From a virus (Duplodnaviria; Caudoviricetes), in the IMG/VR virus record IMGVR_UViG_3300035520_001075, positions 1 to 64,000 of that record: a stretch of DNA of 64,000 nt, one strand, 5' to 3'. The position numbers were made by a program, and so were the translations under genes. The notes beneath the pieces were generated by a model. That model saw only the letters and a program-made list of their open reading frames with translations. It searched no databases and was not told the DNA's origin. Shown here piece by piece: positions 10,327 to 44,104 of the stretch (position 1 is its first letter; each line of letters opens with the position of its first letter).

Positions 10327-10365
10327 TAGATAAACAATTAAATAAAATTTTATATAAATGAAATT

Positions 10366-10398
10366 TGGTGAGTGAGGCTATCTCACCCACCATTTTTT
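10366..10398 (+). terminator. intrinsic terminator after capsid gene
   Basis: TGGTGAGTGAG/CTCACCCACCA stem followed by T6. Confidence 0.75.
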
Positions 10399-10420
10399 GA
10401 GTTAAAAGGAGGAAATTAAT

Positions 10421-11699: not shown

Positions 11700-12430
11700 T
11701 GGGTTATTTTGAAGATGTATATTTAAAAAGAATGAATATAGACGGGCATACTCAGCAAGATAGAGTTAAAACAAGAAAGGAAAAAGAATTCGATAGACTT
11801 TTTTTAAAGAAAACAGAATATCAATGTCATCTTTGCTCTGTTAATGGGGAGGATAGAAACGATATTTGTTCTCTTCAACCCAACAGTTGGAATGAATCAA
11901 AGTTAGTAAGTAATCTCTTAATGTCAACTAAAGCCGCACCTCTAAAGACAGGAGATATTTTATAGATAAAACAACGAATTAAGGATAAAGAACAAGATAA
12001 AATTTGGCTTGTATTTTTCGTTGAAGATAATCTTACTAAAGGCTATCAACTTTTTAAGATAATTTGCTTAGATAGTGAGATTAATTTAACTAATGAATAT
12101 GGAGATACAGATATTGTAATTCCAGTTAAATTTGTTAGTGCAACCAGTAGCTTTATTACAGACCAATTTTCAATATCTTAGAGCAATTTGGGTTATAGAG
12201 AGCCTAATGCTAATAGGTCTTTTATTACTGCTGATTTTGATGCTTTGCAAAAAGGAAGATATTTAGAATATCAAGAAAGAGGATGGGAAATTATGGGAAA
12301 AGATACCATTAGTATTCCTAATGTTAGTTATACTTTTATTAGTGAAAAGTTGCTTGTGCCGCCAGAACTAAAAAGTTCAGAGGACATATTGGTTGGCCGC
12401 GATACTAATTTCTTTTTAAACGGTAGGTGA
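11699..12430 (+). CDS. putative head closure/neck protein, ~243 aa
   Basis: TAATG coupling to the previous gene; track ORFs 11693-11965 and 12188-12430 share a frame, separated only by TAG codons. Confidence 0.65.
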
Positions 12431-12434
12431 TATT

Positions 12435-12935
12435 ATGGAATCTAAGGTACGCTATGGTCAAGAGCATGGACCGAATCTCATTAAAATTGCTCATAAACTA
12501 ATTGATAATCAAAATCTTTTGAAATTATTAATAAATACAGATTTAGACCCTTTAAATAAAGAAAAACATCCAGACGTAGTAGACGGTTTGTCATTATTAG
12601 GAAAGAACATTCGTGTTATTCCATTAATTACCGCAGATGAAGAAAATATTACATCAAAAATAGTTTTACTTTATACTAACGGCTCTATAAACAGTAGTAA
12701 TATGGATAATGAAAATATGTCTTTAATGATAAATGTATATTGTCCTTTTAAAGAATGGTAGATTACAGGAAATAATTTAAGACCATTTGCAATAATGTCT
12801 GAAATTAGAAAATCTTTACAAGATAAAAGAATAAATGGCTTGGGAGAAATAAAATATTTAGGTTTTAGTGTTTCAACTTTAACAGAAGAGTTAGGTTGTT
12901 ATTCAATGGAGTTTACAATCAATGCTTTCAGCTAA
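12435..12935 (+). CDS. putative tail completion/neck protein, ~166 aa
   Basis: Read-through of TAG 12759 gives ...CPFKEW(Q)ITGNNLRPFAIMSEI...GLGEI..., ending TAA 12933-12935. Confidence 0.65.
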
Positions 12936-16834: not shown

Positions 16835-16875
16835 AATTGGCTATTGAATTAAATAGTTCAATAGCCAATTTTTTT
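16835..16875 (+). terminator. intrinsic terminator
   Basis: AATTGGCTATTGAA/TTCAATAGCCAATT inverted repeat plus T-run; track ORF 16837 wrongly starts inside it. Confidence 0.75.
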
Positions 16876-16908
16876 AATATAAAAATTTTAAGTGAGGTGA
16901 ACGTATTA

Positions 16909-21635: not shown

Positions 21636-23045
21636 ATGAATCTATTCCAAAAATATGGTATTAAGGAAGTTGCAGATGTAGTATTCTATACTATAACTAC
21701 TGTTGGAGATGAAGAAATCTACACTCCAGTTTTACTCCTTGATACTTTAAAGGTTTCTACTATAGAAAAGTCAGCAGAGAATGTAAGTGCTGAAGGTGGT
21801 AAAGGTAATAAAAAGTTAATTACTTGGAATTTCGGAAAAGAAATCACTTTAAATCTTGAAGACGCTTTATTCTCTCCTGCATCAATGAGCATGATTTGGG
21901 GCGGCGAACTCCAAGCTAAACTTGCTCCTTATACATCAGCAATTGTTAAAATTAATATAGCAAACAAATATGGACAGCTTCATTATTCTACAAAGGCCTA
22001 TCCTTCTCCTGCTTTAACAGATGAGGAATGGGAAATTGTGTTTAAAGCGGCGACTGAATCAAAGGTTTGGATTGGAGATAATAGCGTTTTAAATACTTCC
22101 AAATATTCTGGTTTAATTTACTGGAAAGAAAATTATGATTCAGATGAGGAATCTATTGAAGAGAATAGAACTAATTTGAGAAAAGGCTATTATAAGAGAT
22201 TATGGCAATCAAGTTCTGATTATACATATAGTGCGTCTTCAACTGATTATGCTATGCCTACTAAAGTTGTTGAGAAGATTATGACTTATATTACTAACAT
22301 AAAGAAAATAGGTTCAATTGAAACAGAAATGTATGATGTTGAAGTTATTGACAGAATGGAAAAATGTATTGTTAGAAATAAGGACGGCTTAACAATCAGC
22401 ACTCAGGAACAAAAGAAAAATTTATTTAAATATTATCAAGATGACCAGACTTCATCTTATACTATTTACTATGATGCAAAGACAATGTTGCCATTATTCA
22501 ACTTAACAGATGATGGCTACATTCAAGGCTGGGAGGCAAACTATCAGAATGATGACCACTATGACCAAGATTTTGATTTAAAAACTGACTCAGACCGTTT
22601 TAAACTTAAACTTGGTACTGTTTACTACAAATGGACAAGAACGGTAAAATATAAGCAGGGCGATGATGATGGAATTCTTGGAAGAACTCTTGTAATTGAT
22701 GCAGAAACTTTTCCAGGTGTTTACAAAATAGTTGGCGAAACTTACATTAGAAATCAGAAGACTGGCAAAGACCAGCGTTATCAGTTCATAATCCATAGAG
22801 CACAAGTTAATTCTGACACAAGCATTACTTTGGAAGCAGAAGGAGACCCAACAACATTCACAATGTCAATTGATGTCTTAACTCCTCCAAATGATATTAT
22901 GATGGAACTTAAACAGTTTGATGTAGATGAAGATACAATTCATGGCGGAACAAGAATAGTTCCTCAGAAGGCTATCTATACTCATACTGCAACACAAACT
23001 GAACTTTTAGATACAGTCGGATTCGACAATCCAGAGATTTATTAA
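21636..23045 (+). CDS. tail-tube-like structural protein paralog 4
   Basis: MNLFQKYGIKEVAD...LDTLK...WNFGKEI...FPGVYKIVGET...LEAEGDP. Confidence 0.8.
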   Translation: MNLFQKYGIKEVADVVFYTITTVGDEEIYTPVLLLDTLKVSTIEKSAENVSAEGGKGNKKLITWNFGKEITLNLEDALFSPASMSMIWGGELQAKLAPYTSAIVKINIANKYGQLHYSTKAYPSPALTDEEWEIVFKAATESKVWIGDNSVLNTSKYSGLIYWKENYDSDEESIEENRTNLRKGYYKRLWQSSSDYTYSASSTDYAMPTKVVEKIMTYITNIKKIGSIETEMYDVEVIDRMEKCIVRNKDGLTISTQEQKKNLFKYYQDDQTSSYTIYYDAKTMLPLFNLTDDGYIQGWEANYQNDDHYDQDFDLKTDSDRFKLKLGTVYYKWTRTVKYKQGDDDGILGRTLVIDAETFPGVYKIVGETYIRNQKTGKDQRYQFIIHRAQVNSDTSITLEAEGDPTTFTMSIDVLTPPNDIMMELKQFDVDEDTIHGGTRIVPQKAIYTHTATQTELLDTVGFDNPEIY

Positions 23046-24046: not shown

Positions 24047-24073
24047 GGGAACGGCAAAGACCGTTCTTTTTTT
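24047..24073 (+). terminator. intrinsic terminator
   Basis: GGGAACGG/CCGTTCTT hairpin plus T-run. Confidence 0.7.
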
Positions 24074-24092
24074 GTTTTATGGAGGTGAGAAA

Positions 24093-26588
24093 ATGCCAGT
24101 TTCTAATAATTTAGTTCAAGAAGCGAAAGAAGATAAATTAATAGCTTATTTTATAGGCCTTGCGAAGAAAAGTTTTGAGCAGGAAAAAAAATTCTATTCA
24201 ATAGTGGGGATTGAAAAGAGTGAGAATATGCCTCAATCTTTAGTAGATGAGTATGAAAAATTAACAAATAAAGATTCTTTTAAAAAATATCAGGATAATC
24301 TTGCAGATACTGTGTATGGAAAAGACACTCATTTTATAAAATATTTTTATGATGAAAAATTTATAAGTGCTCTAAGTGGAAAAGCAGCATCGGTCGATTC
24401 TGTTTTAAATAATCTTGAAAAAGATTTGGCAGCATATGCAATAGCTATGTCAGGAGAATAGACTGATATAACAGTAGTTGGAGAAAAAACCTCTTTAGAA
24501 AAAAGTATAACTATTTATTATTTATTTGGGACAGATAAAGATGAAAAAAGCATTGAAATTTCAGGAAAAACTTTAGAAGATAAATTTGAATAGAAAAAAA
24601 AGGCTATTAAGCCATAGGAATTAAAGACTTTTATTGCTGAATAGATAATGGAAAAAGAAGGAAATGTAAAATCAAGAGTTAACCTTAATCCTAGCAACAA
24701 AGAAATTATTCCAAATTTACTAAACGCTATTAATAATTTTATATTAGGATTAAAAGAAACTTCGGGAGAAGTCACGCAGAAAGGAAGAGGATATTATATT
24801 ACAAGAAATATTGAATTTGGCAATAAAATTGGAATTTCTTTAGGTGAAGCCTTATTTGGAAGCTATGGAGAACCCTTACCAGAAACTATAGATGAAGCTT
24901 TTAAAATTAAAGGAGGTCGAAACTTACTTAAAAACAAAGACATGCCAACATATTCTCAAATTTTAAATGATCCTAAAAAAAGTGTCGCTAATGATATAGT
25001 AAGGGCTTTAAATGATACTCTATTGCGTGAAAATGTTATTTAGAGTTTGAGTGAGACTGAAATTAATACAAAAATGGCACTCCTTATTCGATATTTAATA
25101 GAAGGGATGTTTACGAATGGAAAAGCAAATATTTCTATTGAGGGTGCTGTAAGTAGTAATAATAAAAATTACAGAAAAAAAAATGAGATTAAAATGTTTG
25201 AACTTAATTTTGGCTCTCCTAATTTAGAAGAAATTCTTAAGGAAGGAGAATATACAATTAAACTTCGCGGTGGAGAAGAAATGTTTAAAACATTGTTTTC
25301 TGGAAGTTTTAAAACCGAACTTGCACGGCAATTAAAAACTGAACAAGTTAGCGGAGAGAAAAATCAATTAATTTGTGGTGTAAAAATTATTGCAGAAGAT
25401 AAAAATTTATTTTTTAATAAAATTGATAATTCTATTAATATAGACAACTATAAAAAAGAGGTAATAACTAATAAAAAAAAGAAAGGAATAGATGATTCTG
25501 CTAAATTAGAAAAAGATGCTGAAGAAGTTTCAGCAGCTTTTTCTATGGTTATTAGTTCCGTTATTGGTGAGATAGGTAGTGCAGAAGATTCTGAATTATT
25601 TCAGAAGTGGTGGGGGACAGAAGGCAAAAATGATATGTCCTCAGCACTTAAACAATTAATTATTAATAATCCAACTTAGATTTATGAAATATTAAGTAAA
25701 AAAGATAAGAAACAAGTGGCAGGTATGATAGGAGAAACAGTTTTTGGAGCTATAGTGATGAGAAAAATGAAAAATAGTGGCGACCCAATTGTTTAGATGC
25801 TTGGACAGACAAGCCATGGAAACGGGGAAGCTGCTGTAGATTTAAATATAGTAGATGTAAAAGCATTAGAAAATAGTGGTCAGCTGTTCACATCAGACAA
25901 ATTGGATTCAGAAGTTTTAAAAAAGAAAAGATTAACTTCTGTTGGTTTTCAAATTAAAAACTATACTTCTGCAGGAGAGAATAGTGAAATTTTATATAGA
26001 ACAACAAACAAATTATTGAGTGATACCTCAACTATGAAAAGATATTTATAGGATACTTTTTTAGGATATATTCAAGAATAGCTTACTTAGGATAATGAAG
26101 TATTTTTTTAGGGTGGAACGAAGGATGAATAGGACAAGGAATTAAAAAAAATTGGAAATATTTTAGCTTATCATATTCCATATTTCATGAGATACGATGA
26201 GGCTCAAATGGAGCAAAATACTTTTGGAATAGAACAAAATAATTTCTATATAGTTAATTTTAAGTTTGTTCCCTCTTCAATGCTATTTTTTTTGATGGCT
26301 AAAAGTATCGCAATAGAAAAAGATAAAGTTCCTTTAGGAGAACAATATTTTTATTTTTCAGCTTATGAAAACAAGTCCGAAAGAAACGCAAGGCATGAAT
26401 AGGGAATAGACAAAAACAATAATAGAAATTTTTTACCTTCTTACTATAATTTTAGAGATTCCTTTAAAACCCCCCAGAGTGACAATTTAGTTAGTTGGCA
26501 TCATGATAGACTTGCTATTAATTTTACTGGAGTAAAAGTTAATTTTGGCAAGGAATTTGATAAAATTGTGAATAAAACAACGAGGTGA
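24093..26588 (+). CDS. hypothetical protein, ~831 aa with 13 internal TAG
   Basis: RBS GGAGGTG, ATG 24093; five track ORFs (24072, 24648, 25047, 25797, 26187) share one frame, separated only by TAG; ends TGA 26586-26588. Confidence 0.8.
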
Positions 26589-26913: not shown

Positions 26914-29900
26914 ATGGCAAGTAATAAAAAAACCTTCTATATCGAAGGTAAAGCAGATTTTAGCGACATCATCAACAAATTTAAGCAAGTTCGCCAACAA
27001 CTGCAACAAAAAGGAGCATCAACATCTGACCTCCTTAACATTGATAAGCAAATCCAAAAAATTGAACAGCTTCAAACTGCATTAAAAGCAGCCGTTCAAA
27101 AAGGATTTACTTCCACTTCTGATGTAAATAGTTTCCAAAAAAGTCTTGAAAAAATGAAGCAATTAGCTTCTGAATTGGGAATTAATCTTGGTGATATTGA
27201 CACAAAAACAATTACACAAGGGATAGAATCTGCAGAGAAAGCTATTACAAAAGCAGAAAAAGAATTTAAAGCTTTAAAAAACGAGCAATCAGAAGTTATA
27301 AAAAGTTCTTTAAATCTTTCCTCTAACAGCAAAAAATATGTTCAAACTTTAACTAATGCTGCAAATGAGGGTAAAGATGTTAAAAAGGTTCAAGAACAAA
27401 TTACTGATGAAATTCAAAGTCAAATTGACAAGCAGAAAGAATTAAAAAATCAAGCGGAAAGTGAAAAATCTCAAAAAGAATCAGAAAGAAGTAATCTTGG
27501 CTCGATGAAAGGGTTAAGCAAGAGAAGCTTTAAAACAACAACTGCTTCTGGAAAAGAAAAAAATATATCTGATGACCAAATGTCTCTTGTCGCAGCAGAA
27601 TACAAAAGAATTGCAAATAATTCAAAAGATGCTGGTACGGCAATGGTTAAATTCAAAAAATACCTGTCTGAAAATAATATCACAATGGCTAATGCTAACA
27701 CTATAGAAAAGCATATGGGTCAAAGTATTGATGAAGTTCAGACCAAATATAAAACTTTAACATCTGATATTAAAAATGCAGAAGCTGAAATTAAAAGTTA
27801 TGATAAGCGAATTGAAGATTTAACAGAAGACCAAAAAACTTTAGGTTCTTCTGCAACTAATGCCATAGTAAGTGGTGCTGCAGCAAAAATAGCAGAAGGA
27901 GAAACAAATAGAAATAATAAAGTTTCTGCAGCTGCTCAGCAAGGAACTCAATTGCAAATGCCATCAACAATTCCTGTTGATGTGGACGAAGCAGTACAAA
28001 ATGTTCAGGCTTTAACTGGTGCATTACAAGAAGAAGGCATTCAAACTAACGAAAACATTGATAAGCAAGAGAAGTTTAATCAAAAGCTAGAAGACATAAA
28101 GAGTCGTATTCAGTATTTCTTCTCTCTTGGAAATGCAATGTAGACTATCAGAACACAACTGCAGAAAACATATGAAGAAACGAAGCAATTGGATAGTGCT
28201 TTTGCTTCAATTGCAATGGTAACTGATTATGATGTTAATGATATGTGGAGCAGTTATGGAACTTATGCTGATATGGCTCAGGAGCTTGGACAGAAAACAA
28301 AAGACGTTGTTGAAGCGTCTGCTTTGTTCTATCAGCAGGGTTTGGAAACCAATGAAGTATTGTCATTAACAGAAGACACTATGAAACTTGCTACTTTAGC
28401 AGGTCTTGATTTTAGTACTGCAACTTCTGAAATGACGGCGGCTTAATAAAGCGTAAGGTCGCTTAAAAATATTTTAATTGCTGGAAACTCTTAAAATTCA
28501 AATGCTTTTTATTTTTCCTCAAAATAAAAAGAACGAAAGTAGAAATAAGTTTTGAAGTGGTACATGGTATTTTACCTAAATACTAAAAATAGACAATCAG
28601 CAGCCAAGGAGGAAATATAATATGGAAAATTTTAACATGAAAATGGAAGAATATGAAGAAAGAATAAGAGAAATCTTTCCGCATTGGGAATATAAAACTT
28701 TTAAAATTCTAATTATATTGAACTCAAGGTTCAACGACTATCTCAATAGAGAGTAAATTTAAATAAATTGAAACGGATATGAAAAAGATATAGTCTAAAC
28801 TTTATAGAAATGTAAAGATGAAATAACTCATTAGGAAGTAATGAACCTAATGGAATGAAATGCTACGCGGCTTTAAAATGGAAATGGAAGAAGGCTCTCA
28901 CGTAACTGACGTTTATTCTGAACTTGCTGCTAATGCGGCGGCTTCTGTTGAGGATATAGCGTATGCTATGAGTAAGACAGCATCAATCGGTGCTTAAAAT
29001 ATTGAATTGCTGGAACGTTCTAATGACTATTACACCTTAATGGTTATGAAAGTAGAAAAAAGTAATAGTATGGTATATGGAGTTGCTAACCTAAGTACTA
29101 AATAATGAATAATCAGCAGCTAAGAGTTTAAGATAAAGGAGAAATAATTATGTATGATTTTATAGAAACTTTAAAAAGAGTATTTAATAAAAATAATATA
29201 GAGATTTTAGAATTTAATGGAGAAAAATCTTCTATAAAATATAAATGTACTAAGTGCGGCGAAAACTACAATTATAAAAATGCAAGAAATTTATTTACTA
29301 AAATAACATTATGCCCTAAGTGTTATAAACCATATTCAAGATGGAACAAAGACAGACTACAAGAGCGATTAGAACTATTATTTCCAAACTCAGATTTTAC
29401 TCTATTAAATTATCAAGGCCAAAGAAAACCTTGTAAAATTAAATGTAATAAGTGCGGCAAGATTGAAGTAATTAATAATATCGAAGCTGTAATGATAGGA
29501 AGGAAAGAATTCTTTTGCGGCAATTGTGAAAAAGATAAAAATAAAATCTATGCTCATGTACAAGAAGAATTAAAAAAAGGTTATCTTGAATTGTTAGAAT
29601 GGAAAGGAGTTAATAACTATTCTAAATTCAAATGTAAAAGATGCGGCAACATTTTTGAGAAGAAAGTTCGAGGAAACTTTGATGGGAAAATATGTCCTAA
29701 TTGTTTTAAAATTCATAATAAATTTGATTTTGCAGAAGGTCAAGAACTTTTGAATCAAGTTGGAAATTGTGAATATGAATTACTATAGTTTACTGGAACA
29801 AAGAATAAATCTTTAATAAAGCACAAATGTGGATTTATTTTTTCTAAAAGAATTTTTGAGCTTGGAAGAGGTTGTCCAAAATGCCGCAGAAAAGTAAATA

Positions 29901-32900
29901 AAAAAGTATTGTCTAGCTAACAATATAATCTAAATTAAAACCTTATAAAATTAAAAACCTAAACTATCTTAAACTAAAGCTCAACGACTATCTCAATAGA
30001 GAGTAAATATTAAAAAGTAATATTGAAGTGATATTTGAAAAAGATATAGTCTAAAATGTCTAAAAATAGACATTTTTAATGCGATTGCAAACTCGGCTGG
30101 TATGAGCTTTGAAACAACATCGGCGTTCTTGACACAAATGATAGAAACGACGCAAGAGGCCCCTTGAAACCTTTCATGAGTCAGTCTCATGAATAAACTC
30201 AAATGCTTGACTTTTAGCCTCCTTTATGATATAATTATATTAATAGAAGAAATTCTATTAATATTTTATTAGAAAAAAGGAGTGTTGCGAAATGGATTTT
30301 GGATATATTTATTATTCAAAGAATGAAATTAATGGCAAAATGTACATAGGTAAGATTACCACAAGAAGCTTGCACTGGGAAAATGATTATAAAGGTAGTG
30401 GAACAGATTTACAAAAAGCACTAAAAGAATACGGTACAAAGAATTTTTCTATTCATTTTCTGGCGGCCGCACAAAGTAGTGAAGAATTAACCAGATTAGA
30501 AAAATACTATTTAACGTATTATAAGATTCCAAATGAGAAATTTTATAATAAAAACCTTGCAACTTCAAATAGCGGCCAGTCAAATTATTATAATAAAAAT
30601 AATCAAAAAGGAATAAATCTAAGAGATGTTGTTTGTTATAATTTGAAAGACGACTCTTTAACAATCTTTAACAATTTTACTGCTTTTTGTAAGGAACATA
30701 ATATGATAAGAGGAAACATTTTTAATGTTATCTCTGGACAGAGAATTACACATAAAGATTGTATATTTTGGTATAAAGATTATCCCCTTTCAGAAGATGG
30801 AATTAATTGGATTGTTAACTATAAAAATAAGACTAATTATAAAACAAAGTATATAAAAATTGATGAAGTCAAAGAAGAATTAAAAAGTAATTATAATTTA
30901 GCCAACAATAAAGATATAGATTTTAAATTTAATGGTTATTATATAGAAGACAATAAAGAACTGACGCTAAATTGGGAAGAAATAAATAGTGAGGAAATAG
31001 AAAGATTAATTGACAAAGAAGGAACTGCACCAAAAGAAGAAGAGACGATAGGAAAATTAGAGTTAAATAAAGAAATAGATAATAAATTTGAATTGCCAAG
31101 AGACAGCGAATTCGTAATTGTTGGCAATGGAAAAACTTTATACTTTAATTATGATGAAATAAATATTTTAACAAAACTATACACAGACATAAATCCAAGA
31201 ATTTTAAGACAAGCATTAAATCGAAAACAGAGAACAGTAATGAATAAACAATATTCAATCGTTTACTCATAAAATTTCAGGGTCTATAATAAGCAATTAT
31301 TATAGTAGAATATAATGAATTGACGAGAAAATCCTTAGAGCTCTTACTACTAAACCGTCTTAGTGATAGGGCGGCGGCAAGTCTAATCAGCTTGGTAAAG
31401 TAAAAAAGTAAGAGATTGGATAACTCGCAGCGAAGTTGCTTAGAATTCTAAGTAAAACGTCCAACGACTATCAGGATTGGCTCTGATAGGTATCAAGTGA
31501 TACCGAAGTATTATACTTCCTTTTTAGAGAAAAGGAAGAAGATATAGTCTATTCTATAGGGAAAGCCTATAGCAGTTTAATAAACGGGATGGAATAACGA
31601 ACCATCTGAATGGAAAGGAAAACATTGGTTTGCAAAAGGGCTAATGTAAAATCTATTTAATTGACGGGAACATCCTTAGAACTTTTAATACTTATAAGTA
31701 ATAAATTAAAAGATTGGACAATCCGCAGCCAAATTATTGGGATAATAAAAGGTTCAACGACTATCCTTAATAGGAGTAGAGTTAAATGGCTCGAAAAAAT
31801 AGACATTGTTTAATGACAATGAAGATATAGTCTTATCTTTATAGAAATGTAAAGAAGTAATAAAATTACTTAACAAAAAATAATGATTTTTGTTGAAAAT
31901 CAATGACTGCAATGAAGACCATTCAAGGTAGTGGTCTATAAATCTTCTTAATTGCTGGGAAGTCCTTAGTTTTTATTAAATTTTATAAAACATATAAAAA
32001 TAATAAAGCGGATAATCAGCAGCTAAATTCTTAGGTTTTGAAATAATTTTTCTAAAATTTTAAAGAAGAAGTTCAACGACTATTGGTGATGAATGTAGCC
32101 AAGTAAGATTACTTTAATCTGAAATAGAAGACAGCTTTATGCTGAAGATATAGTCTACTCCCCTTAGTAAATATCGGGAAACCGAGGGTAGAAAGGAATA
32201 GCCCGTTTTACAGAATTGTCTGAAAACGTCTCAGCAGAAGATTCTGAATTTGATGACTTAGACTACAATGATGTAGATACGGCATTAAAATCTGTAGGTA
32301 TCTCATTAAAAGATGCCACAGGACAATTTAGGGATTTGGACGATGTATTTTTAGAGTTAAGCTCTAAATGGAGTACATTGGACCGTAATACCCAGCGTTA
32401 TCGGATACCATTCCATTTTTTAAATGTGTTTGTATCACAAGAAAAACATTTTTAAAATATTGACTTTAATAATATTTTGTGATATAATATTATTAGTAAA
32501 GGAAAATCTTTACTAAATATTATAGTTAGGAGTGATATGAAAATGGTTGAAGGAAAACCAGTTATAATTAATGGAAAGGAAACACAGTATTTTTTATTTA
32601 AGAATGGAGATTTATATAATGAAAATACGCATAGAATTGCACAAGGTGCAATAAATCAAGGGTATATAAGATTTACTCTTGAAATTGATGGAGAAACTAT
32701 AGGCATTTATAAACATCAATTAATGGCTCAATTATTTATTCCAAACCCTGAAAACAAACCTATTGTTCATCATAAAGATGGGTGTCCAAGAAATAATACC
32801 TTAGATAATTTAGAATGGGTAAGCCAAGAAGAAAATCTTAATAAAATTATTAATCCAGTTGAACATAAAATAACTGAAAAATTAACATTAGAAGAATTAG

Positions 32901-35900
32901 AAGAAGAAGAATGGAGACCTTTACAAAATAGTAAATACGAAGTATCAAATATGGGTAGAATTAAAAATTTACAAACTGGAAAAATAACTTTTGGTAGTAG
33001 GAATAAAAATAGTGGCTATATTAGGTGGACATATAATGATTTAAATGGAAATCGACAAGAAATTCAAGCTCATAGAGCTGTTTATATGGTTTTCCACCCA
33101 GATGAAAAAATCAATGTTATTAATCATATTGATTCTAATAGAGGTAATAATAGATTAAGTAATTTAGAGAATGTTTCTCAAAGAGAGAATGTTATAAAAA
33201 GTTATTATCAAACAAAAACAAAACAGACAAAACTAACTGGACAATATGATTTAGAGATGAATTTAATTCAAGTTTTTCCTAGTACCTCAGAAGCTGCAAA
33301 AAATATTGGATTAAACAATTGTTCAAATCTCTCTCGTGCGATGAAAACTGGCGGCATTAGCCATGGTTATTATTGGAGGGAAATTTCAAAAGCAGAATAT
33401 GATGAATTCTTAAATAAAAAATAATAAAGCTAGGTAACGTAACCCATTGAATTGCGGGAATCTCCTTTAAAATAACACAACCAAACAATTCTAAGAATTG
33501 CGGCGAAGGTAATGACTAAGGTATGGTAATATCGTGTTATTTTGGACAATCCGCAGCGAACTTATTTACTTTTTAGTGAATAAAGCGTTCAACGACTATC
33601 GAAATTATAAGTAGAGTAGATTTTTGGAAATCGAAGTAGTGGGGAGTTAGTTATTAACTCATGATATAGTCTAGCTATTATTGAAAGATAATAGAAAAAC
33701 TGATAGCAACTACTGCGGCTTGACTTTAAACGGGTCGCATAAAATCTTTTGAATTGCGGGGACATAATTAAATTTTGAAATACTAAGCAGAAGCGGCGAT
33801 GGGTAATTCCAAAGGTATAGTAAAAAGTTTCAAAATATTATAATCCGCAGCGAATTTTTCTAATAGAAAAAACGTTCAACGACTATCGAAAGCAAATTGT
33901 AAGTAGAGTAGATTTTATAGAGTCGAAGTGGAAGACACTCTAAAAGAGTGAAGATATAGTCTAATATTTATTAATATAATAAATATAGGGTTCTCGTTAA
34001 AATGCTGGCGAAGTGTACAGCCTAAAAAAACACAATTCTTTCAAATGCTGGGACATCTTAAAGCCCATTATACCACAGCACAAAGAGAAATCTTAAATGC
34101 GAAGGTTCTAAAAAATAATGGGATTTATAGGATACTATAAAATAGACAATCAGCATCCAAGCACCGCCAAGGTGAAGGTTCACAGACTTAAAAGAGAATT
34201 ACTAATAGTAAATTATATAGTCGAGCTTTATTGAAAAATAAAAGGAAGTGATTTAATATGTATAAAACAATTATGATTAATGAGTAGATAACAGAATATT
34301 TAATTTTTGATGATGGGCGTTTATTTAATAAAAAGACAAATCATTATTTAAAAGGAAGCATTAGTTCAACTGGTTATAGAACTTATTAGCTAACAGTTAA
34401 GGGCAAATACTATAATATGCTTGCTCATAGATTAGTAGCGGAATATTTTTTAGACAATAAAAATAATTTGCCTTATGTTTATCATAAGGACGGTAATCGT
34501 CTTAATAATTATAAAAATAATTTAGAATGGGTTAGCTTTTCTGAAAATTCAATAGAAGCCTATGCGGCTGGCCGCAGAACGTCTCATGCTACTAAACAAT
34601 ATATTACAGAAGAAGAATTAGCTAATAAAGAATGGAGACAAATTGAACAAACTCAATATTATGTTTCTGAGTATGGAGATGTTTATAATTCTAATACGAA
34701 AGCAAAATTAAGACCAAAGAAAGATGGCTATTTACGCTATTCAATTTTTATTGATAATGAAATTAAAATAATTCCTGCTCATATTTTAGTTTATAAAGCT
34801 TTTGTTAATAAGGAAATTCATAATGAAATAGACCATATAGATGGTAATAAACTAAATAATCACTATACCAATTTAAGAGATATATCTCATTCTGAAAATA
34901 TGATTAATGCAATGAATAATGGTCATAGAAATAAAATAGCGGTAGAGCAAATTGATGAGAATGGAAATATTGTTAAAATTTTCCCATCTATAGCTGCCGC
35001 CGCAAAAGAAATGAAATGCCAACCTGCTCTAATAAGAAGGGCAATAAAAAACAAAAACAAAACTCATAATTACTATTGGAAAAAACATATTAAATAATCT
35101 ACTTGCAGCAGAGTAGATTCTTAGCTTAAAATTTAAGGCTACAATATTTGAATTGCTGGAAACTCCTTAGAGCCTAATAAACTACAACATAAAAAGAAAT
35201 TTTAAGTGTGATAGTTTAAAAATTATTAGGATTGGACAATCAGCAGCCAAGCATCGTTAAGATGAAGGTTCAACGGTCATTACGTAGGAATAAGCATTCC
35301 GAAGCGGAGAATTTCTGGAAAGATAAGATATGACCTTTTCTTATAGGAAACTATAAGCCATATTGGAAAGTTATTTAGCGAATAGCTTTAAAAATAAAAG
35401 TTAATGGAAGATTACGATAGAACAGTGGAACTTGTTGAAACAGCACAAGATTCTACTGGTAAATCCTCTGAACAATTTGCAAAATATCAAGATACACTCG
35501 AAAATAAAGTTAATAAATTAAACGTTGCCTGGGAAAAATTAAGGTAGAAATTTGTTAGCTCAGATATATTTAAGGGAGCTATTGAAAGTATTACAAAACT
35601 TGTTGATAAATTAAATAGCTTTAGTATTGCGGATTTTGCAGCATTGGGAACTGTATTTGTTACACTTGGCAATACTGCTGCAGAATCTTTTTTAAATGGA
35701 TTTCGTTCTACTCTAAAAGGAGTCGGACAAATAACAACCATGATGTCAGAAAAGTTTACTTTACAAGCCTTTCCTGAATTTAGTAAAAATTCAAAAGAAA
35801 AATTACAAAAAGAACTTGAAAAAAGTAATAATTGGGTAGAAAGAGCAACATCTAATTTGGAAGCTAATAAAACAGCAAGGTCCGAAAATTATAGTCTTTT

Positions 35901-38900
35901 AAATTCTCTGAAACAAAAGTAGGTAAAAAATCTTGAAGAAGTTAAAAATTTGAAAAATTCTCAACTAATAAGTCTCATGCGTGGAGACAGTGATGAGGTA
36001 CTACAAAGAATTGAGAATAGTTTACAAGAAAAACAAAAAATAGGAGAACAAATAGGAGAAGATCTTCAAGCAACAGAACAAGAACAAGAGAAAATAAATT
36101 AGGCTATTGTAAAAGGAAAAAAGGATTTAGCTGAAGCAAAAGCAGACCAAAGTTTTAAGACTCAAAAACTACAAGATTCTGTAGTTGTAGATTCTACAGA
36201 ATTAGCTGAAACTGCAAAAAATTCTTTCGTTACTGCATTTACCACTGGTATTACAGTAGCTTTTGCAACTGAAAATCCTATTAAAGCAGGGCTTTCTGCG
36301 GCAGTGGCAGGGGCAGTAGCTTTCTTGCCTATTATTTTTAAAACAATAAAAACGTTAATGACAAAACAATCTTTGAGTTTGGGTCAAGCAGCTGCAAAAG
36401 CCTTTAATTCAGGATTGGGCCCTTATGCAATTATTGTCGTGGCTGTTGCTGCTGCTATAGCTGCAGTTGTAGCTGGAATAAAAAAATTACAATCAACCAT
36501 GGAAGCCAATTCTATTGGTGGCCGCATTAGTGCTCTTGAAGAAGATATTGATAATGCCACAGAATCTGCGACGAAGTTAAAAGAGGCTTTATCAAAAACA
36601 ACAGAAGAGAAAAAATCATTAGAAGAAATTAAAGAAACTTATAATGAGCTAAAAAATAAGCTAATTTTAACAGAAGAAGAGCAAGAAGAATATAATTCAA
36701 TGGTAGAGACTTTAAAAGAGAGTTATCCAGAATTAATTACTTACTATGATGAACAAAATAATAAAATTACAATTTCCAACTCTTTATTAGACGAACAAAT
36801 AGAAAAGGTTTCGGCATTACAAAAATTAGAATCTCAGCAAGTGTTAGCAGCGGATTATAAAACAGAAGGATTGCAAAATCAATATGATACGTTAAATGAA
36901 ATACTAAGCGGTTATTCTAAGTTTGGCTTTGATGCGACGTGGGCGACAGAAGATGACAATATATTTAAAGAATCTTCTTTTAATACTAACACTATAAGTA
37001 TGATTGATGAAGAAGGCTTATTAGATATTTATAATAAATATCTCAATAAAAGCACACCTGTTGTTTCAATGTCAGCGGAAGATAGGAACGCTGTTATAAA
37101 TGCAATACAATATGCCTTCTCAGGTGATTATGCTTATCTTTCAGGTATTTCAGACAATTATAAAGAAGGAGCACAAGCATTAGCTAATGCAGCAGAATCA
37201 GAAAGAGAAATCATAGATGGATTAAAGAATGACTTTGCGGAACTCTATAGCTATGCTACCGATTATTATAGTACAAACTATTCTGATATGACAGAATCTG
37301 AGCAGGATATACGAGGGGCAATTGCCGCGGCATATATTGACAAGTTAAATGATATTGTTATTTCTGATAGTACCGATATGTAGGACGTATTGACATAGGT
37401 ATCGGAAATTCTTGGAGATTCAGGGATTGTAAATTTAGATTAGTTTGAAAACCAATTTACATCAGCATATGCCAGTCTTAAAAGTGGGTGGAAAGGAGCG
37501 AATACTTTAGCTTAGAACGATGCTTCTGCTAGGTCATTATTAGCTCTTTTGGGTATTACCACAGAACAAGAATATGCTGACCTTGGTATAAAAGATTGGG
37601 GTAATGATGATATTTTAGCTTATATGAATAGTAATTTTATTCCTTTATTATCAGAACAAATAACAGAAGCTTTAGGAGAAGTAGAAATAGATAGTAATGC
37701 ATTATCTGTAGCAAATGAACTTTTTACTGACGTAAACGAGATGTCAGCAGAAGAATATGCAAATGCTAAAAACACTTTATCTGAGGCATTAACCCAATAT
37801 GATGATATTGATATAGATACTGTTTTGGGAGCTCTTTTTGATTAGACTACAATTGATAATGCCGTAGAAAGTTTACAGGCCTATAATAACACGTAGGATT
37901 TTACCATTAGTAATTACACTACAATGGCATCTGCTTTAGCTAACTTACAAGACCGTTTCGGTTCTTTAGATGCATATGCACAAGACTCTTTCCAAGATTA
38001 TATTAATTTTATTCAAGGACAAAATTTATCAAGTGATGTCGCAAATGCATTATTTAATATTGATGTTTCTTCTTTTGATGGACAAACAAGAGAAGAAATA
38101 AAAGAGGCAATAATTGAACTAGTATCAAATGAAGACCTCGAAGGGGCATTGGGAGAGAAAGAAGCAAAAGCTTTTGCAGAGGGCTATATTAATGAATTAG
38201 AAACAGGAGCTTTGGCGGATTTTAGCATTACTTCTGTTGTTGGTTTTGAATCTGAAATTGATGATATAAAAGAATAGGCTAAAACTATTACAGATTCAAT
38301 GTCTTCTATTACTGATGCAATTACCAATTAGGCGGAAAAAGGATACATTACCGTTAGCAATTATGCTACTTTAGCAGAACAATTAAGCAGTTTAGACTTA
38401 GATGTAGATGATTATGTTTCTGTTAATGATAATGGAGATTATAGTTTAAATGCAGAGGCTTTAAGAGATGCTTATGCAGAACAACTTAATGATAAAGAAA
38501 ACTTAGTTGAATTGGCAAAAGAAGATTTACAAAACGGTATTGATGAATTAGATATTCAAATTCAAATCCTTGAAAGTATGCTCAACGGAGTTAATGCAGA
38601 AGATGCAAAGGGAGAAGCCATTGCTCGAAACAATAGACTTTATGCGGAACAATTAGCATTATAGGCTGGTCAAGACGTTGATACTTATTTAACAAATCAT
38701 AATATAAGTTTATCTGATGCACAAAGTTCGTTAACGACTGAACAAAAGAAAATAATACAAGATCAAATTGATTCCCTGTAGGCTCAAAAAACAGATATGG
38801 AAAATAAAAAGAATAACTTAACTGAGGATGAAGCAGAAAAGATAATATCTCCTTATTTAAATGACCTTTTACGTACATATACTGAGGCTTGGGATGATGG

Positions 38901-41265
38901 AGTAGAAAAAGCAGAAGACGCAGAAGATATTGAAGACGCTTTAGAAGCTATTGAAGAAGCAGAGCAAGATGTAATTGATAAAACAAAAGAACTTCAAGAA
39001 GCATATCAGGGCTCAGCTTGGTATGAGAGTGCAGTGGATTAGCTGTATAATTATACTACTGCTTTGGATTATGTTGCTGATAAAATTAGTGATTTTAAAG
39101 ATACTCTTGATGATTTAAGTGCTGATGATAATATTACTGAAAATTTAAATGGATATTTAGAGAATATTAAGAAATATAATACAATTTCAGAAGCAGAGAA
39201 AAAAGTTCTTGAACAAGCTAATCAGTCAATTATTGATGGACTTGACAATACTTTAACTAAAGAATTACAGGCTCTTAGCGAAAAATATAGTGATTATAAG
39301 ATTGATACAAATGTTTCTGATTATTATACTTATGATGAATATAGCGGAACTTATATGGTTAATAGTAATGCACTGGCCGCCGCCAAGATGTCAGATACCA
39401 TTAAGAAAGAAATCGAAACACAAGTTCAGCAGTTAAATAGTAATTTAAGTTCAATAAACGATATAAATGAAAATGTAAAGAAATATGAGTAGGAATTAGA
39501 AGATTTACAAGAAACAGCATTAAACAATCAAGTTGCTCTTGAAGATGAAGTAATTTCAACCTTAAAGCAAAAGTATCAAGAAGAAATTGATAATGCTAAA
39601 GATAAATATCAAGCATTAGAAGATGCTAATGATGAATATCTTGAAGCTTTACAAGATGCAATTCAGAAAGAAAGAGATTTAAGAAGTGAACAGGATAGTT
39701 GGGACGACTTAGCTAAGAAAGAAAAGAAACTGTCTTTAATTTCAAGAGATACTTCTGGGGCAAATCAATCTGATATTCAAAGTTTACAAGATGAAATTGA
39801 TAATGATAGACAAACATTATTAGATGATACTGTCGATAATATTCTTGAAACAATGAAAGAACAATATGAAACACAGAAAGAACAAAATGATACTCAAATA
39901 GAAATTCTTGAAAATCTTCATAGCGACGAAGCAATCACAAAAGAAGCTGTAAGTCTTATCGCAAGTTGGCAAACAACAGATGATATGATATTATGGATGA
40001 CTCAAAATTCAACAGAGTATGAAACTTGGTCTGATTCTAAATATCAGCAAATGGTTGAATCTTGGGAAAAAGAATTCCTAGCAAAACAAGCAGCAGATGA
40101 AATATTATAGACAGATTTATTATCTCAGACTAAGACAGACGCGGAAGAAATTGAACAAACATATGAAGCTTATGACCAAACAGCAACAACTCAGATAACA
40201 ACTGCTATTGGAGACGATATAGATACTGTTTCTACAGAAATTAGTGATGCTAAAAAGGCTTTAGAAGAGGCACAAAAAACATTAATAGAAAAGCAAGAAG
40301 CTTATAATGAATTAATAACTAATATTGATGAAAATGTTGCAGATATAGCAAACGGAAAAACAGCGGATAATGATAATAACGATAATAAAGATAATGATAC
40401 CGTTGCAGACGAAACAGCAGCATATTATAAGGAACAATATGATAAAAATGCTAATAATCCAGCTGCTCAAAGTGCTATAATTTCAACAGCTAAAAATAAT
40501 GGATATAATTTTTCTAATGGATTTTTTTATAAATCGTCTAGTATTTAGAATAATGACGATGATACTTCTAAACTAACAGAAGCCAAGGCATTATATACAC
40601 AATATTTAGCTAATGAAGGTAATGCTAATGCACAAACACAAATTGGTAATTTAATATCTAAAACTGGTTATACTGTTGAACAAATCAAAGAAACATATAA
40701 CAATTCAGGATTATCGTTGATAAATAAAGCAACAGTTTCAAGTGAAGATGCCGTAAAAGAAGGTCAGTGGTATTCTGTAAACACAGGAACAACTAATGAA
40801 TGGACTGAATACGGACAAGTTCTATGTGCAGACACCCAAACAGAGTTAGAACAAATTATACAACTCGGCAGAAAATAGGGCTATCTTGCTAATATAGAAT
40901 TTGCTATGACCCATAAAGGAACCGATGAACCTACATACTTTTTTAAATCAGGCGGCCTTGTTGACTACACTGGTCCAGCATGGGTAGATGGTACAAAAAC
41001 CAAGCCAGAAGCTTTCCTCTCAGCATCAGACACTCAACGTATAGGAGAAGCCGCAGAACTTCTTGCTAATATTCCAATACTCAACTCAACATCAACTTCA
41101 GCAACCAATCTTGCCACAAATGTTGGAGATACAACAATTGAAGTTCACATTAATATAGAAGAAATCTCATCAGATTACGATGTAGATTCAATGATTGATA
41201 GAGTTAAACAAGACATTGTAGATGTTTCTAATCCAATAGGAACACAAGTAATGTTGTCGAAATAA
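26914..41265 (+). CDS. tail tape measure protein, 10 exons, ~2626 aa after splicing and TAG read-through
   Basis: Exons 26914-28443, 28863-28983, 30082-30164, 31618-31629, 31906-31922, 32197-32401, 33703-33720, 33989-33997, 35106-35126, 35401-41265 (7881 nt, in frame). Joined core: EMTAA|LRGF...SKTAS|IANSAG...TQEAP|ENIG|TAMKTI|IARF...TQRY|IATTAA|GSR|QQSRFLA|LMEDYDRT, a TP901/PhageMin_Tail-type motif; C-terminal FKSGGLVDYTGPAWVDG. Confidence 0.92.
28444..28862 (+). mobile_element. group I intron TMP-1 (419 nt) with a degenerate ORF remnant
   Basis: P1 GCGGCU/GGUCGC (28457-28462); P10 GCGUA/UACGC; core AATTGCTGGAAA, AATCAGCAGCC, CAACGACTATC, AAGATATAGTC; terminal G 28862. Confidence 0.9.
28984..30081 (+). 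mobile_element. group I intron TMP-2 (1098 nt) with an ORF in the P6 region
   Basis: P1 AGCAU/GUGCU (28990-28994); perfect P10 CAAUCG/CGAUUG; core motifs flank the ORF; terminal G 30081. Confidence 0.92.
29150..29920 (+). CDS. intron-encoded Zn-ribbon repeat protein, ~256 aa (homing-endonuclease-derived, no catalytic motif recognised)
   Basis: RBS AAGGAG; repeated CxxC pairs (CTKC/CPKC, CNKC/CGNC, CKRC/CPNC, HKC/CPKC); TAG 29786 read through to TAA 29918-29920. Confidence 0.7.
30207..30235 (+). promoter_or_regulatory. intron-internal sigmaA-type promoter for the GIY-YIG ORF
   Basis: TTGACT-N17-TATAAT with extended -10 TG. Confidence 0.8.
30292..31272 (+). CDS. GIY-YIG homing endonuclease
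   Basis: N-terminal GYIY...KMYIG...YKGSG...LEKYY...FYN motif; lies inside intron TMP-3. Confidence 0.85.
   Translation: MDFGYIYYSKNEINGKMYIGKITTRSLHWENDYKGSGTDLQKALKEYGTKNFSIHFLAAAQSSEELTRLEKYYLTYYKIPNEKFYNKNLATSNSGQSNYYNKNNQKGINLRDVVCYNLKDDSLTIFNNFTAFCKEHNMIRGNIFNVISGQRITHKDCIFWYKDYPLSEDGINWIVNYKNKTNYKTKYIKIDEVKEELKSNYNLANNKDIDFKFNGYYIEDNKELTLNWEEINSEEIERLIDKEGTAPKEEETIGKLELNKEIDNKFELPRDSEFVIVGNGKTLYFNYDEINILTKLYTDINPRILRQALNRKQRTVMNKQYSIVYS
31630..31905 (+). mobile_element. group I intron TMP-4 (276 nt)
   Basis: P1 CAUUGGU/GCUAAUG (31640-31646); P10 UUGCA/UGCAA; core motifs present; terminal G 31905. Confidence 0.92.
31923..32196 (+). mobile_element. group I intron TMP-5 (274 nt)
   Basis: P1 AGACCAU/GUGGUCU (31931-31937); core motifs present; terminal G 32196; splits an Ile codon AT|A. 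Confidence 0.92.
32460..32488 (+). promoter_or_regulatory. intron-internal sigmaA-type promoter for the HNH ORF
   Basis: TTGACT-N17-TATAAT with extended -10 TG. Confidence 0.8.
32537..33424 (+). CDS. HNH homing endonuclease with two tandem HNH domains and a NUMOD-like C-terminus
   Basis: VHHKDGCPRNNTLDNLEW and INHIDSNRGNNRLSNLE; EEWR...YEVSNMGR (NUMOD4-like); FPSTSEAAK (NUMOD1-like). Confidence 0.88.
   Translation: MKMVEGKPVIINGKETQYFLFKNGDLYNENTHRIAQGAINQGYIRFTLEIDGETIGIYKHQLMAQLFIPNPENKPIVHHKDGCPRNNTLDNLEWVSQEENLNKIINPVEHKITEKLTLEELEEEEWRPLQNSKYEVSNMGRIKNLQTGKITFGSRNKNSGYIRWTYNDLNGNRQEIQAHRAVYMVFHPDEKINVINHIDSNRGNNRLSNLENVSQRENVIKSYYQTKTKQTKLTGQYDLEMNLIQVFPSTSEAAKNIGLNNCSNLSRAMKTGGISHGYYWREISKAEYDEFLNKK
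33721..33988 (+). mobile_element. group I intron TMP-7 (268 nt)
   Basis: P1 UGCGGCU/GGUCGCA (33733-33739); core motifs present; terminal G 33988. Confidence 0.9.
33998..35105 (+). mobile_element. group I intron TMP-8 (1108 nt) with an HNH ORF in the P9 region
   Basis: P1 UCGU/GCGA (34008-34011); P10 UGCUG/CAGCA; core AAATGCTGGGA, AATCAGCATCC, CACAGACT, TATAGTC lies before the ORF; terminal G 35105. Confidence 0.88.
34258..35097 (+). CDS. HNH homing endonuclease with tandem HNH domains, ~279 aa and 2 internal TAG
   Basis: RBS AAGGAAGTG, ATG 34258 in frame with track ORF 34417; AHRLVA...HKDGNRLNN and IDHIDGNKLNNHYTNL motifs. Confidence 0.85.
35127..35400 (+). mobile_element. group I intron TMP-9 (274 nt)
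   Basis: P1 UAGCU/GGCUA (35137-35141); P7 shows compensatory changes (GGTCA/TGACC instead of GACTA/TAGTC); terminal G 35400. Confidence 0.9.
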
Positions 41266-41320: not shown

Positions 41321-44104
41321 ATGATGAGACAGATAAAGGATTTTGTTGGCTTTAGATTTGGTAATGTCCATTCAAGTGAACTTAATTTATTAGTAGTATC
41401 TTCCAGTGATAGATATGAAAAGAATTTACTTCCAGACCCAACAGATTATACAACTGAAATCCCAGGTTCAGATGGAACTTATTACTTTGGACAAACCTAC
41501 AAAGACAGAACTTTTACTGTTAATGTTGCTTTTGATAGAGTAAGTGAACCAATCTTTAGAAAAATTTCTTAGTTATTTGCTAATGATAAACTTCAAGATT
41601 TAGTCTTCGATGAAATGCCTTTTAAAACTTACAAAGCAAAAATTAAATCTAATCCAGACTTTAAATTCATTTGTTTTACAGATAGAGATACTGGAGAACG
41701 AGTTTATAAAGGAGAAGGAACTTTAGTATTTATTTGCTATTTTCCTTATGCTTTTGGTTTTAATAAGTACGTTGTAAGAGCGGCAGACTTCTATAAGTGT
41801 GCTCAGCCGAAAGACATTATTATTAACAAACTTGAAGATAATCCATATAGAAAAAAGAAAAAGCCAAAGTTTTGGCCTGCTATTATAAAAGACCATTATA
41901 ATGTTGAATATAATATGAGAACTCCTTGGAAGGGCGGCTACCCTACAATAGAACAAGTTCAATGGGGAGAACTTTATTTTAAAGGCCCAGAAGATTCTGA
42001 GAAAAAAATGATTATTGATGTGCGTAATTATTGGAAGAATATCCCAGAATGGCAGGGAACAGCAAAGTTATTAACAACTCCTACTCTTGATTATGACCAA
42101 GAATTGATTTTTGCACCGCAGTTTTCAAAGTGCAAGTTTATTAATATGGACACTGGTTATTATACTGAAAATGATATGATGGGTAGTAGAATTTTAGTTT
42201 ATAATCCAGGTGATTTACCAATTGAATTTGAATTAAAAATGGAAGAGAATAAAAGAACTTTCTGGTCTTCAAGAATGGGCAATGGTTTTAGAATTAGTCG
42301 CTTTAATGTTGAAAGATTATCTATTGAACAAGCAGTAGATTGGACTGGATTAACAACATTAGAACAAGTAGATGATAAACCTTATAAATATGGTAATAGA
42401 TATTTTAAGTTAGACGATAGCGAACCAGATGATACAGAGCTTTTAAAAAATATTGATGAGTATACTAATAAGAATTGGTTGGAAGAAGACATTCTTATGG
42501 AAGAAGGAGATACTCATAATTATGGCTATTATGATAGAGAAGGTAATGAAGTTATTACAGACGTGATAGTAGATGGAAAAGAGGGTAATACTGCTTACAC
42601 AACTCCTAATGGGGCGGCCGCTAAAGAAATTGCATATAATTTACATTTAAAAGAATATCAAGATTCATTATATAATTTTATTGACGAAAAAACCGAATAT
42701 CGTTTATTAAAAGCAGCCCACCCTCATCACACTTATATTGCTGAGCCAATTCCTCGCCAAAAGCTTGGACACTATATCAAATTATTCTATTGGCAGTCAG
42801 AACAGCAGTTTAAAGATAACTCAAAAAAATTAGCAAACCTTTATCCACAGTTAAAGTTTGAAGATGGAATTAAGATTGCAAATAGATATGATGAGTTAAG
42901 AAGTCTTTGTATAAATGAAGATGAAGAATATGAGTTATATTGGGAAACTTTGAAAATGGCCATTCTTGATAAATACAAGGATTGTAATGTTTTTTCTGAG
43001 AAAACTTCTACATATTATGATTCAACTTATACTTATGAAGATTTTGTAGAGAGCTTCTTATATCACCCAATGGAATTTATTACAGTCGATACAGATAAGG
43101 AACTTGATTATGGTCAAGATACTTTAAATATCTATAATTATCCTCAATGGATTACAGAAGATTACTTAGAAATCGACCCATCAGCACTTGCTTATGATGA
43201 GGATTATAGAACTTATAATAAAACCGAAAATATGCCAGATGCACTTTTCCTTGACACAGAAGAAAGAATTCTTTTTGAGAATCAAAATCCAGATGACTTT
43301 TATAAATATAAACCTACTAAAATACTTTACAATGATTCTATTAAAAAAGGAAAATGGTTTAAGTTGCCGCCAGGTTGGAGCTTAATAGCAATTGAACCTA
43401 TTTCTGATGAGGAATATTGGGGTGGAAAACGTTGGTTAGATGCAAGACCTTTTGATTGGGGCTATGGCGGTGATGAGAATCGGAATCCACGAGAAGTTCA
43501 ACAGTTATTTGATGGCGTATATGATTATTGTGTTAATAAATTTCTCAAAAACTCAGAAGATGAGGGAACTTATTATAAAGAAGAAGCTTTTAGTCGAGAT
43601 AACGTAAATACATGGTTGGCAAAAGGCTATAATAATGGACTTTTTGATTTAAACGGTGGAAAGAATTCTCCAGCAGAAAAATCGTATATTAATAATGATA
43701 ATCAGCCAGTGTTAGACATAAATACACTTGATGATGAAGATAGAATGAAGATTAGGAATTGGTTCTTCTATTATAAGGAACAAGCGAAGTCAAAAAATGA
43801 TACGTTTGCTTATCAGCTCTATTGTAAAAGAGAAACACAAGCAGAATACTCTTTCTTAAAATTATTATATCGAGTTTGGAATAAAATTTCCCCTTACTAT
43901 TCTTGGACTGCAGGAAAAGGCGTTTTTGAAGATGGAGAAGATTTGGACGATAGCGGCCGCCCTAAGAGATGTATCAATGCTCATATCTCAGATTGGTGGT
44001 ATTATGCTTGCAACTATATGTGGGCAAATTTCCCTCCTTTGTATTGGGGACTTGCAGATTTATTAAACGGATTACAAATTAAATATGTTCCACTATTTTA
44101 TTAA
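41321..44104 (+). CDS. distal tail (Dit)-like baseplate protein with large insertions, ~927 aa
   Basis: Follows the tape measure gene; GFRFGNVHSSELNL...EIPGSDG..YFG N-terminus; single TAG at 41570 joins track ORFs 41321 and 41615. Confidence 0.72.

Follow-up and report, generated by a model that had tools for sequence, protein, structure and literature searches.

A phage tape measure gene with nine predicted group I introns and internal exons as short as nine nucleotides

The T4 genes td, nrdB and nrdD, all belonging to nucleotide metabolism, carry single group I introns of the IA class, and many such introns separated by mini-exons are familiar from the mitochondrial cox1 gene of fungi. Landthaler and Shub are said to have described, in 1999, three group I introns in orf142 of Staphylococcus phage Twort, and exon skipping is reportedly named for this phage in the title of the Twort paper. 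For tape measure genes the nearest precedent comes from prophages of the Bacillus cereus group, where three insertion sites (TMP-IVS1, IVS2 and IVS3a/b) are used with no more than two introns per gene (Tourasse & Kolsto 2008, PMC2504315). A stark example, in the words of a review (PMC10136315), is a crAss zeta capsid gene with three introns. Our search of the literature for four to nine group I introns per gene returned organelle and ribosomal DNA cases along with a single phage paper, in which introns are counted per genome. Here, we address the tape measure gene of an uncultured phage known from a metagenome assembly (virus record IMGVR_UViG_3300035520_001075, 157,483 bp), of which the first 64 kb constitute the window under analysis. 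A first-pass annotation of this window, made from the letters alone, proposed nine group I introns in the gene and stated that no phage gene with so many was known; the maximum that we found in the literature is indeed three per gene, so nine is three times the highest per-gene number found published for a phage.

The reading that we favour, at a probability of roughly 0.85, is that selfish mobile group I introns were added, one after another, to the part of the tape measure gene that is most conserved, its PhageMin_Tail core, and that the nine present there are self-splicing. To our reading of published reports this is the densest intron array of any virus gene, and its mechanism is the familiar mobile self-splicing one.

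Reading frame and exon-intron map

The tape measure gene occupies positions 26914-41265 of the plus strand and is resolved into ten exons and nine introns (Table 1) in a map guided by uninterrupted homologues from the related viral contigs L004, L005, L006, L007, L008 and L009. The introns sum to 6471 nt and the eight internal exons to 486 nt, which makes about one intron per 60 nt of mature coding sequence; the junctions and lengths in this rebuilt map are identical to those first proposed. Joined exons give one 7881-nt frame of 2626 codons terminated by TAA, with TAG taken as a sense codon. TAG is the sole interruption of the frames flanking the introns, and its reading as sense opens 26914-28446 and 35404-41265, the mature frame containing 19 in-frame TAG codons confined to exons 1 and 10. 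The tape measure frame of the first-pass annotation is borne out, although its account left out that the reading depends on TAG being sense. A suppressor tRNA with the CUA anticodon and a 46-nt insert was located by ARAGORN in intron mode directly after tRNA-Gln(UUG), at genome positions 121319-121589, outside the window. TAG as sense is also met in other late genes, with 13 such codons in 24072-26588.

Table 1. Exons and introns of the tape measure gene in the window, and introns of the clade in which P8 is missing (ORF, open reading frame; P1 given as paired strands)
Feature	Position	Strand	Length (nt)	Details
Exon 1	26914..28443	+		510 codons, one in-frame TAG; open frame under TAG=Q; N-terminus like that of P0005
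Intron I1	28444..28862	+	419	begins TAA TAA; no intact ORF; P1 28437-28444 with 28456-28463
Exon 2	28863..28983	+	121	PF10145 profile positions 64-108 matched at 28860-28994
Intron I2	28984..30081	+	1098	endonuclease ORF 29150-29920; P1 28979-28984 with 28989-28994
Exon 3	30082..30164	+	83	
Intron I3	30165..31617	+	1453	endonuclease ORF 30292-31272; core 31275-31617; RF00028 62.3 bits; P1 30162-30169 with 31275-31282
Micro-exon 4	31618..31629	+	12	ENIG
Intron I4	31630..31905	+	276	no ORF; RF00028 69.0 bits; P1 10 bp
Micro-exon 5	31906..31922	+	17	TAMKT and two bases of the following Ile codon
Intron I5	31923..32196	+	274	no ORF; RF00028 57.1 bits; P1 8 bp
Exon 6	32197..32401	+	205	PhageMin_Tail profile positions 151-191; 88-90% identity to homologues
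Intron I6	32402..33702	+	1301	endonuclease ORF 32537-33424; core 33430-33702; RF00028 54 bits; P1 32395-32402 with 33433-33440
Micro-exon 7	33703..33720	+	18	IATTAA
Intron I7	33721..33988	+	268	no ORF; RF00028 69.8 bits; P1 9 bp
Micro-exon 8	33989..33997	+	9	GSR
Intron I8	33998..35105	+	1108	endonuclease ORF 34258-35097; core 33998-34250; RF00028 46.7 bits, E 1.8e-9; own model 109 bits
Micro-exon 9	35106..35126	+	21	QQSRFLA
Intron I9	35127..35400	+	274	no ORF; RF00028 32.5 bits, E 3e-5; own model 151 bits
Exon 10	35401..41265	+		1954 codons, 18 in-frame TAG, TAA end; phrog_4211, tape measure protein
P8-less copies, window	28444-28862; 28984-30081			introns I1 and I2
P8-less copies, L001	6836-6983; 8300-8428			
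P8-less copy, L002	11670-11817			
P8-less copies, L011	11085-11240; 12320-12474			

The strongest support for the map comes from proteins that need no splicing. An in-frame tape-measure core had been proposed from the start, with alignment to intron-less homologues as its test; the predicted spliced protein aligns without gaps to four such homologues at 9 of 9 junctions and is about 80% identical to them over the PhageMin_Tail stretch. Database proteins P0005, P0001 and P0002 are continuous over all nine sites, likewise align to the predicted product with no gap at the junctions, and have the IATTAA motif in common. P0010 begins with nearly the same N-terminal sequence as P0005 and ends just past site 6 in read-through residues (ELTFSI), the continuous P0005 and the stopped P0010 thereby representing near-identical natural minus and plus alleles of the site-6 intron, and one more homologue, P0028, also ends just past site 6, its read-through residues resembling the start of I6. 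In the window the peptides ENIG, TAMKTI, IATTAA, GSR and QQSRFLA follow each other in order and in frame between ribozyme cores, and chance cannot explain five predicted micro-exons so arranged.

The PhageMin_Tail profile PF10145 (201 positions, cut-off 33.2 bits) gives one continuous match of 109.9 bits over positions 2-195 in each of L005 and L007. Exons of the window used singly as queries match, in this order, profile positions 2-64, 64-108 and 151-191, none of them reaching the threshold, and a weak sub-threshold match to PhageMin_Tail profile positions 2-63 falls in residues 453-509 of exon 1; the tape measure gene is the sole PF10145 locus in the 157-kb genome. Comparison of exon 6 with 5.8 billion proteins returned no continuous protein of 100% identity, which would have pointed to a spliced transcript or an intron-less twin; the best matches are those at 88-90%. 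These serve as intron-less alleles and not as evidence for a spliced transcript.

Ribozyme cores of the nine introns

Between 28.4 and 35.4 kb of the plus strand, the Rfam group I model RF00028 recognises five cores above its gathering threshold of 50 bits (31261-31572, 31598-31854, 31904-32178, 33399-33693 and 33710-33982), and looser filters add 33985-34243 (46.7 bits), 35090-35357 (32.5 bits) and a 3′ fragment at 30040-30071. A hidden Markov model (HMM) built from the seven clear cores found both core halves of I1 and I2 flanking an insert; the halves of I2 lie at intron positions 10-142 and 993-1070, and I1 is 82% and 77% identical to them, respectively.

At all nine sites the 5′ exon ends in T (U) and the intron in G, and every intron can form P1, 6-10 bp long, around a U.G pair at the splice site, in agreement with what the first-pass annotation had described; eight of these helices were found by script, and the I8 helix was worked out manually (33994-33999 with 34006-34011). 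Since each P1 is confined to the exon immediately upstream, the introns would be able to act independently, with no waiting on a neighbour. The consensus structure obtained by RNAalifold for seven window introns and five orthologues recovered P3, P4, P5, P5a, P6 and P8. With P7 added as a pseudoknot, the 41 core pairs are 96.3% paired, versus 72.6% in shuffles and 40-46% in slid controls; compensatory changes are seen in 33 of the 41, a support reached by none of 500 shuffles. P7 of I9 itself is compensatory, reading GGUCA/UGACC where the others have GACUA/UAGUC. Two extra hairpins between P7 and P3′ assign the introns to the IA type. A brief inspection by eye for P10 pairing found nothing consistent. 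An in-frame TAA or TGA, never TAG, stands 0-51 nt inside each intron and is the first codon in five of the nine, so that ribosomes on unspliced RNA would be halted before they reach the ribozyme core.

I1 and I2 are taken to be functional but atypical. They keep P1, P3, P4, P5, P6, P7, P7.1, P7.2 and P9 (recognised partly by eye), and in the P8-less architecture P7.2 is followed by P3′, about six bases (GAAAAA) and then the conserved AUAUAGUC. P8 is absent from seven site-1 and site-2 introns of four phages (the window, L001, L002 and L011; Table 1), among which P7.1 and P7.2 covary. An ORF-less site-1 orthologue in L011 reaches 48.3 bits with RF00028 over the full model, and the covariance model alignment flags its P3 and P8 as non-canonical; I1 of the window carries a 107-nt insert (28609-28715) at the place where I2 has its ORF. 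The introns of these two sites may thus be a natural P8-less variant of the group I ribozyme. A literature search for group I introns without P8 turned up only unrelated papers.

Endonuclease genes and intron mobility among related phages

Four of the nine introns (I2, I3, I6 and I8) contain endonuclease genes and the other five are ORF-less. The I2 frame, with one TAG, sits between the Q (P4/P6) and R (P7) core elements and matches phrog_559, phrog_681 (endonuclease) and the zinc-ribbon and DUF723 families of Pfam, being zinc-ribbon/HNH-like. The I3 frame lies inside the P1 loop and matches the homing endonuclease family phrog_314 (E 1.6e-14); it has no Pfam match at E 0.01, reads GYIY...YIGK by eye at its N-terminus, and is described here as GIY-YIG-like. 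Also placed inside the P1 loop, the I6 frame matches HNH_3 (PF13392, curated cut-off 24.8 bits) with 64.9 bits, NUMOD4 above the cut-off and NUMOD1 just under it. The I8 frame, with two in-frame TAG codons, is located between P9 and the 3′ splice site, and exceeds the HNH_3 cut-off as well (49.8 bits) in addition to matching phrog_59 (E 6e-61). Among promoter-like sites of the region the best two, 30207-30235 in I3 and 32460-32488 in I6, are near-consensus TTGACT-17-TATAAT sequences with an extended -10 TG, the former matching 11 of 12 positions; they precede the endonuclease genes of their introns, both free of TAG, by 57 and 49 nt, respectively. The overall number of promoter-like sites in the region is no higher than expected by chance. 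The genes in I2 and I8 lack such sites, and because they contain TAG their endonucleases would be made only once the suppressor tRNA is active.

Intron maps of the relatives were obtained with a spliced aligner, those of L001, L003, L005 and L011 being corrected by direct reading of frames. L011 has eight introns (sites A, 1, 2, 3, X, 5, 7 and 9′), L002 six (sites 2, 3, 4′, 6, 8 and 9), the partial contig L001 at least six (sites 1, 2, 3, X, 4′ and 6, with exons of 8 and 9 nt), L003 one at site 3, and L004-L009 none. The clade as a whole has introns at 13 sites in a coding stretch of about 600 nt, and the region is an intron hotspot, as the first-pass annotation suggested. The nine introns of the window are mutually 46-65% alike, whereas the closest relative is the same-site intron of another phage: 98% for I3, 95% for I6, 93% for I8 (in L002), 91% for I9, 74% for I7 and 70% for I1. 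By this contrast the nine are separate lineages, and recent duplication, considered as their origin, was rejected on the same figures.

Identity along the gene is mosaic. The window (28120-31625) and L001 (6241-9969) are about 98% identical over a block that takes in the end of exon 1 and reaches into exon 4. Outside it identity drops to 70% in the 5′ part of the gene and, past a breakpoint that falls within the 12 nt of exon 4, to 79.5% in exon 6. Similarly, the window and L002 share 94% across exon 6, I6 and exon 7 versus 80% in exon 1. Such a pattern is what homing with co-conversion of flanking exons would leave. The boundaries of recombination between the window and L001 coincide with intron sites.

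Some details of the relatives depart from the common scheme. The intervening sequence at the ENI/G site (L011:13993-14247; L001:9969-10869) is matched neither by RF00028 nor by the intron HMM, and its L001 version carries a LAGLIDADG-type ORF, so it may be an intron of a different class. In L011 the 5′ exon at site A (9585-10842) ends in A, as does the site-2 intron (11362-12474); these rule-breaking ends could stem from an error in sequencing, from a junction that has shifted or from decay of the intron.

The favoured course of events would begin with transcription of a precursor of about 14.3 kb from 26914-41265, from which each IA-type intron would remove itself by the two-step guanosine-initiated reaction. 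Joined exons would then be translated, by means of the phage's own CUA-anticodon tRNA, into the 2626-aa protein; we infer that all nine introns splice in vivo. The endonucleases, probably active, would presumably cut intron-less alleles in co-infecting relatives, the intron and flanking exon being copied into the break. The five ORF-less introns may spread or persist through their neighbours, that is, by co-conversion when a neighbouring endonuclease cuts, or else by vertical descent. Few copies of the tape measure protein are needed per virion, and it is presumably for this reason that the gene tolerates its intron load.

As for the surroundings, terminase, portal and structural genes precede the tape measure gene and Dit is encoded behind it (41321-44104), an arrangement consistent with a siphovirus-type tail module. 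The opening 699 aa of exon 10, compared by tblastn with a set of 50,697 phage records, gave zero matches, so no cultured relative is known. Genome-wide, Rfam and our own HMM detect at least 16 group I introns, over half of them in the tape measure gene. Another one in the window (16249-16579, RF00028 58.8 bits) lies between frames 13688-16351 and 16837-18873; together with 18893-21238 and 21636-23045 these frames all match phrog_2729, virion structural protein, and form a run of paralogues.

Alternative readings and known systems

Several points weigh against nine self-splicing introns. The first-pass annotation expected nine hits with group I models, and RF00028 scores above its gathering threshold for five of the nine; I8 (46.7 bits) and I9 (32.5 bits) are significant by E-value yet remain under the gathering threshold, and I1 and I2 give only 3′ partial matches of 21.7 and 20.4 bits. 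These last two have no recognisable P8 hairpin, in contrast to the other seven introns of the window. Nine serial splicing events would, moreover, sharply lower the yield of mature mRNA unless each were very efficient. Finally, I1 and I7 follow near-identical exon sequence GCGGCU (28437-28443 and 33714-33720) and have similar guide sequences, and such related pairs of internal guide sequence and exon at sites 1 and 7 could permit cross-pairing and exon skipping. A rival reading is that some of the nine cannot act as ribozymes on their own, in which case I1 and I2 (perhaps also I8 and I9) may require a protein cofactor or splice poorly and so limit tape measure output. The partial model matches, the loss of P8 throughout the site-1 and site-2 introns of four phages and the non-canonical P3 and P8 of the ORF-less orthologue speak for this possibility, which we nevertheless regard as unlikely: the lineage survives in four phages that have diverged from one another, and its P7.1 and P7.2 carry compensatory changes, helices P1, P4, P5, P6 and P7 are intact in both introns, and the host gene, the only tape measure gene of the genome, is otherwise perfectly preserved. 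Far less credible is the view that the array is an assembly chimera of variants with fewer introns, or a dead pseudogene. It is true that the sequence was assembled from a metagenome and that relatives are polymorphic in their intron content, but exons of 9-21 nt are shorter than a read and so link adjacent introns physically, independent assemblies of other samples repeat the series I1-exon 2-I2-exon 3-I3 (L001, about 98% identical) and I8-exon 9-I9 (L002), the 157,483-bp contig is complete with terminal repeats, and all exons are intact and in frame.

A different question is whether the stack is kept because it benefits the phage. The first-pass annotation supposed a kinetic or GTP/Mg-sensitive gate, and this idea found no support: intron-less L004-L009 make the same protein, the near-identical alleles P0005 and P0010 differ only in the site-6 intron, four introns have homing endonucleases, and blocks of intron plus exon are far more alike between phages than is the rest of the gene. 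The pattern is that of selfish mobility and not of an adaptive regulator. Benefit might be sought, beyond timing or GTP/Mg sensing, in a shield and weapon between co-infecting phages, where sites already filled would be safe from the endonucleases of rivals while the phage turns its own against them. The crowding of 13 insertion sites into about 600 nt across the clade would suit such a role, as would the division between the endonuclease genes in I3 and I6, which are free of TAG and have the best promoter-like sites, and the TAG-containing ones in I2 and I8; an intron endonuclease serving phage competition is described in a published paper (PMC11620839). We consider a beneficial stack improbable all the same, given that intron-less relatives make the same protein, that no sequence feature points to sensing, and that presence or absence varies site by site with no conserved set. 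Selfish accumulation does leave room for a tentative extension, possible though on balance doubtful, in which the PhageMin_Tail core is a battleground of homing endonucleases: at least 13 sites within about 600 nt are occupied by distinct lineages moving in blocks with exon, and a full stack would be immune while its own four endonucleases attack. Should this be true, the clade would hold natural IA-type group I ribozymes working without P8, as exemplified by I1 and I2.

Accumulation of selfish introns on this scale has practical consequences, since standard gene callers fragment the single 2626-aa protein and stop-codon recoding adds to the damage, which implies systematic mis-annotation in viral metagenomes. 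It also raises the questions of how nine related ribozymes, arranged in tandem on one transcript, reach their proper folds and splice without error with ribosomes trailing the polymerase, how exon skipping is avoided, whether ORF-less introns ride on neighbouring endonucleases, and whether a group I core works without P8.

Viewed against the known systems, the T4 introns offer the same looping out of endonuclease ORFs from the core or their placement 3′ of it (nrdD/sunY) and homing with co-conversion of flanking exons, and they differ in that here two endonuclease ORFs lie inside the P1 loop, leaving about 1 kb between the P1 strands. Fungal cox1 is likewise a conserved gene with a stack of independent group I introns, homing endonucleases and very short exons; it is, however, an organelle gene, often served by protein maturases and free of translation coupling, whereas the array described here resides in a lytic-type phage gene with translation close behind transcription. 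Twort orf142 is a late phage gene with several closely spaced group I introns as well, three in number and with splicing reportedly shown by experiment, in comparison with the nine predicted from sequence in the present case. The closest likeness is to the Bacillus cereus-group prophages (PMC2504315), which share with our phage the type of host gene, the IA class, in-frame insertion with a stop codon that opens the intron or comes directly after its start, endonucleases of the HNH or GIY-YIG type (in our phage GIY-YIG-like) in part of the introns and ORF loss in others, and the sharing of same-site introns between phages. What sets the present gene apart from them is nine introns in one gene, 13 sites in the clade, exons down to 9 nt and a TAG-recoded 157-kb phage as the carrier.

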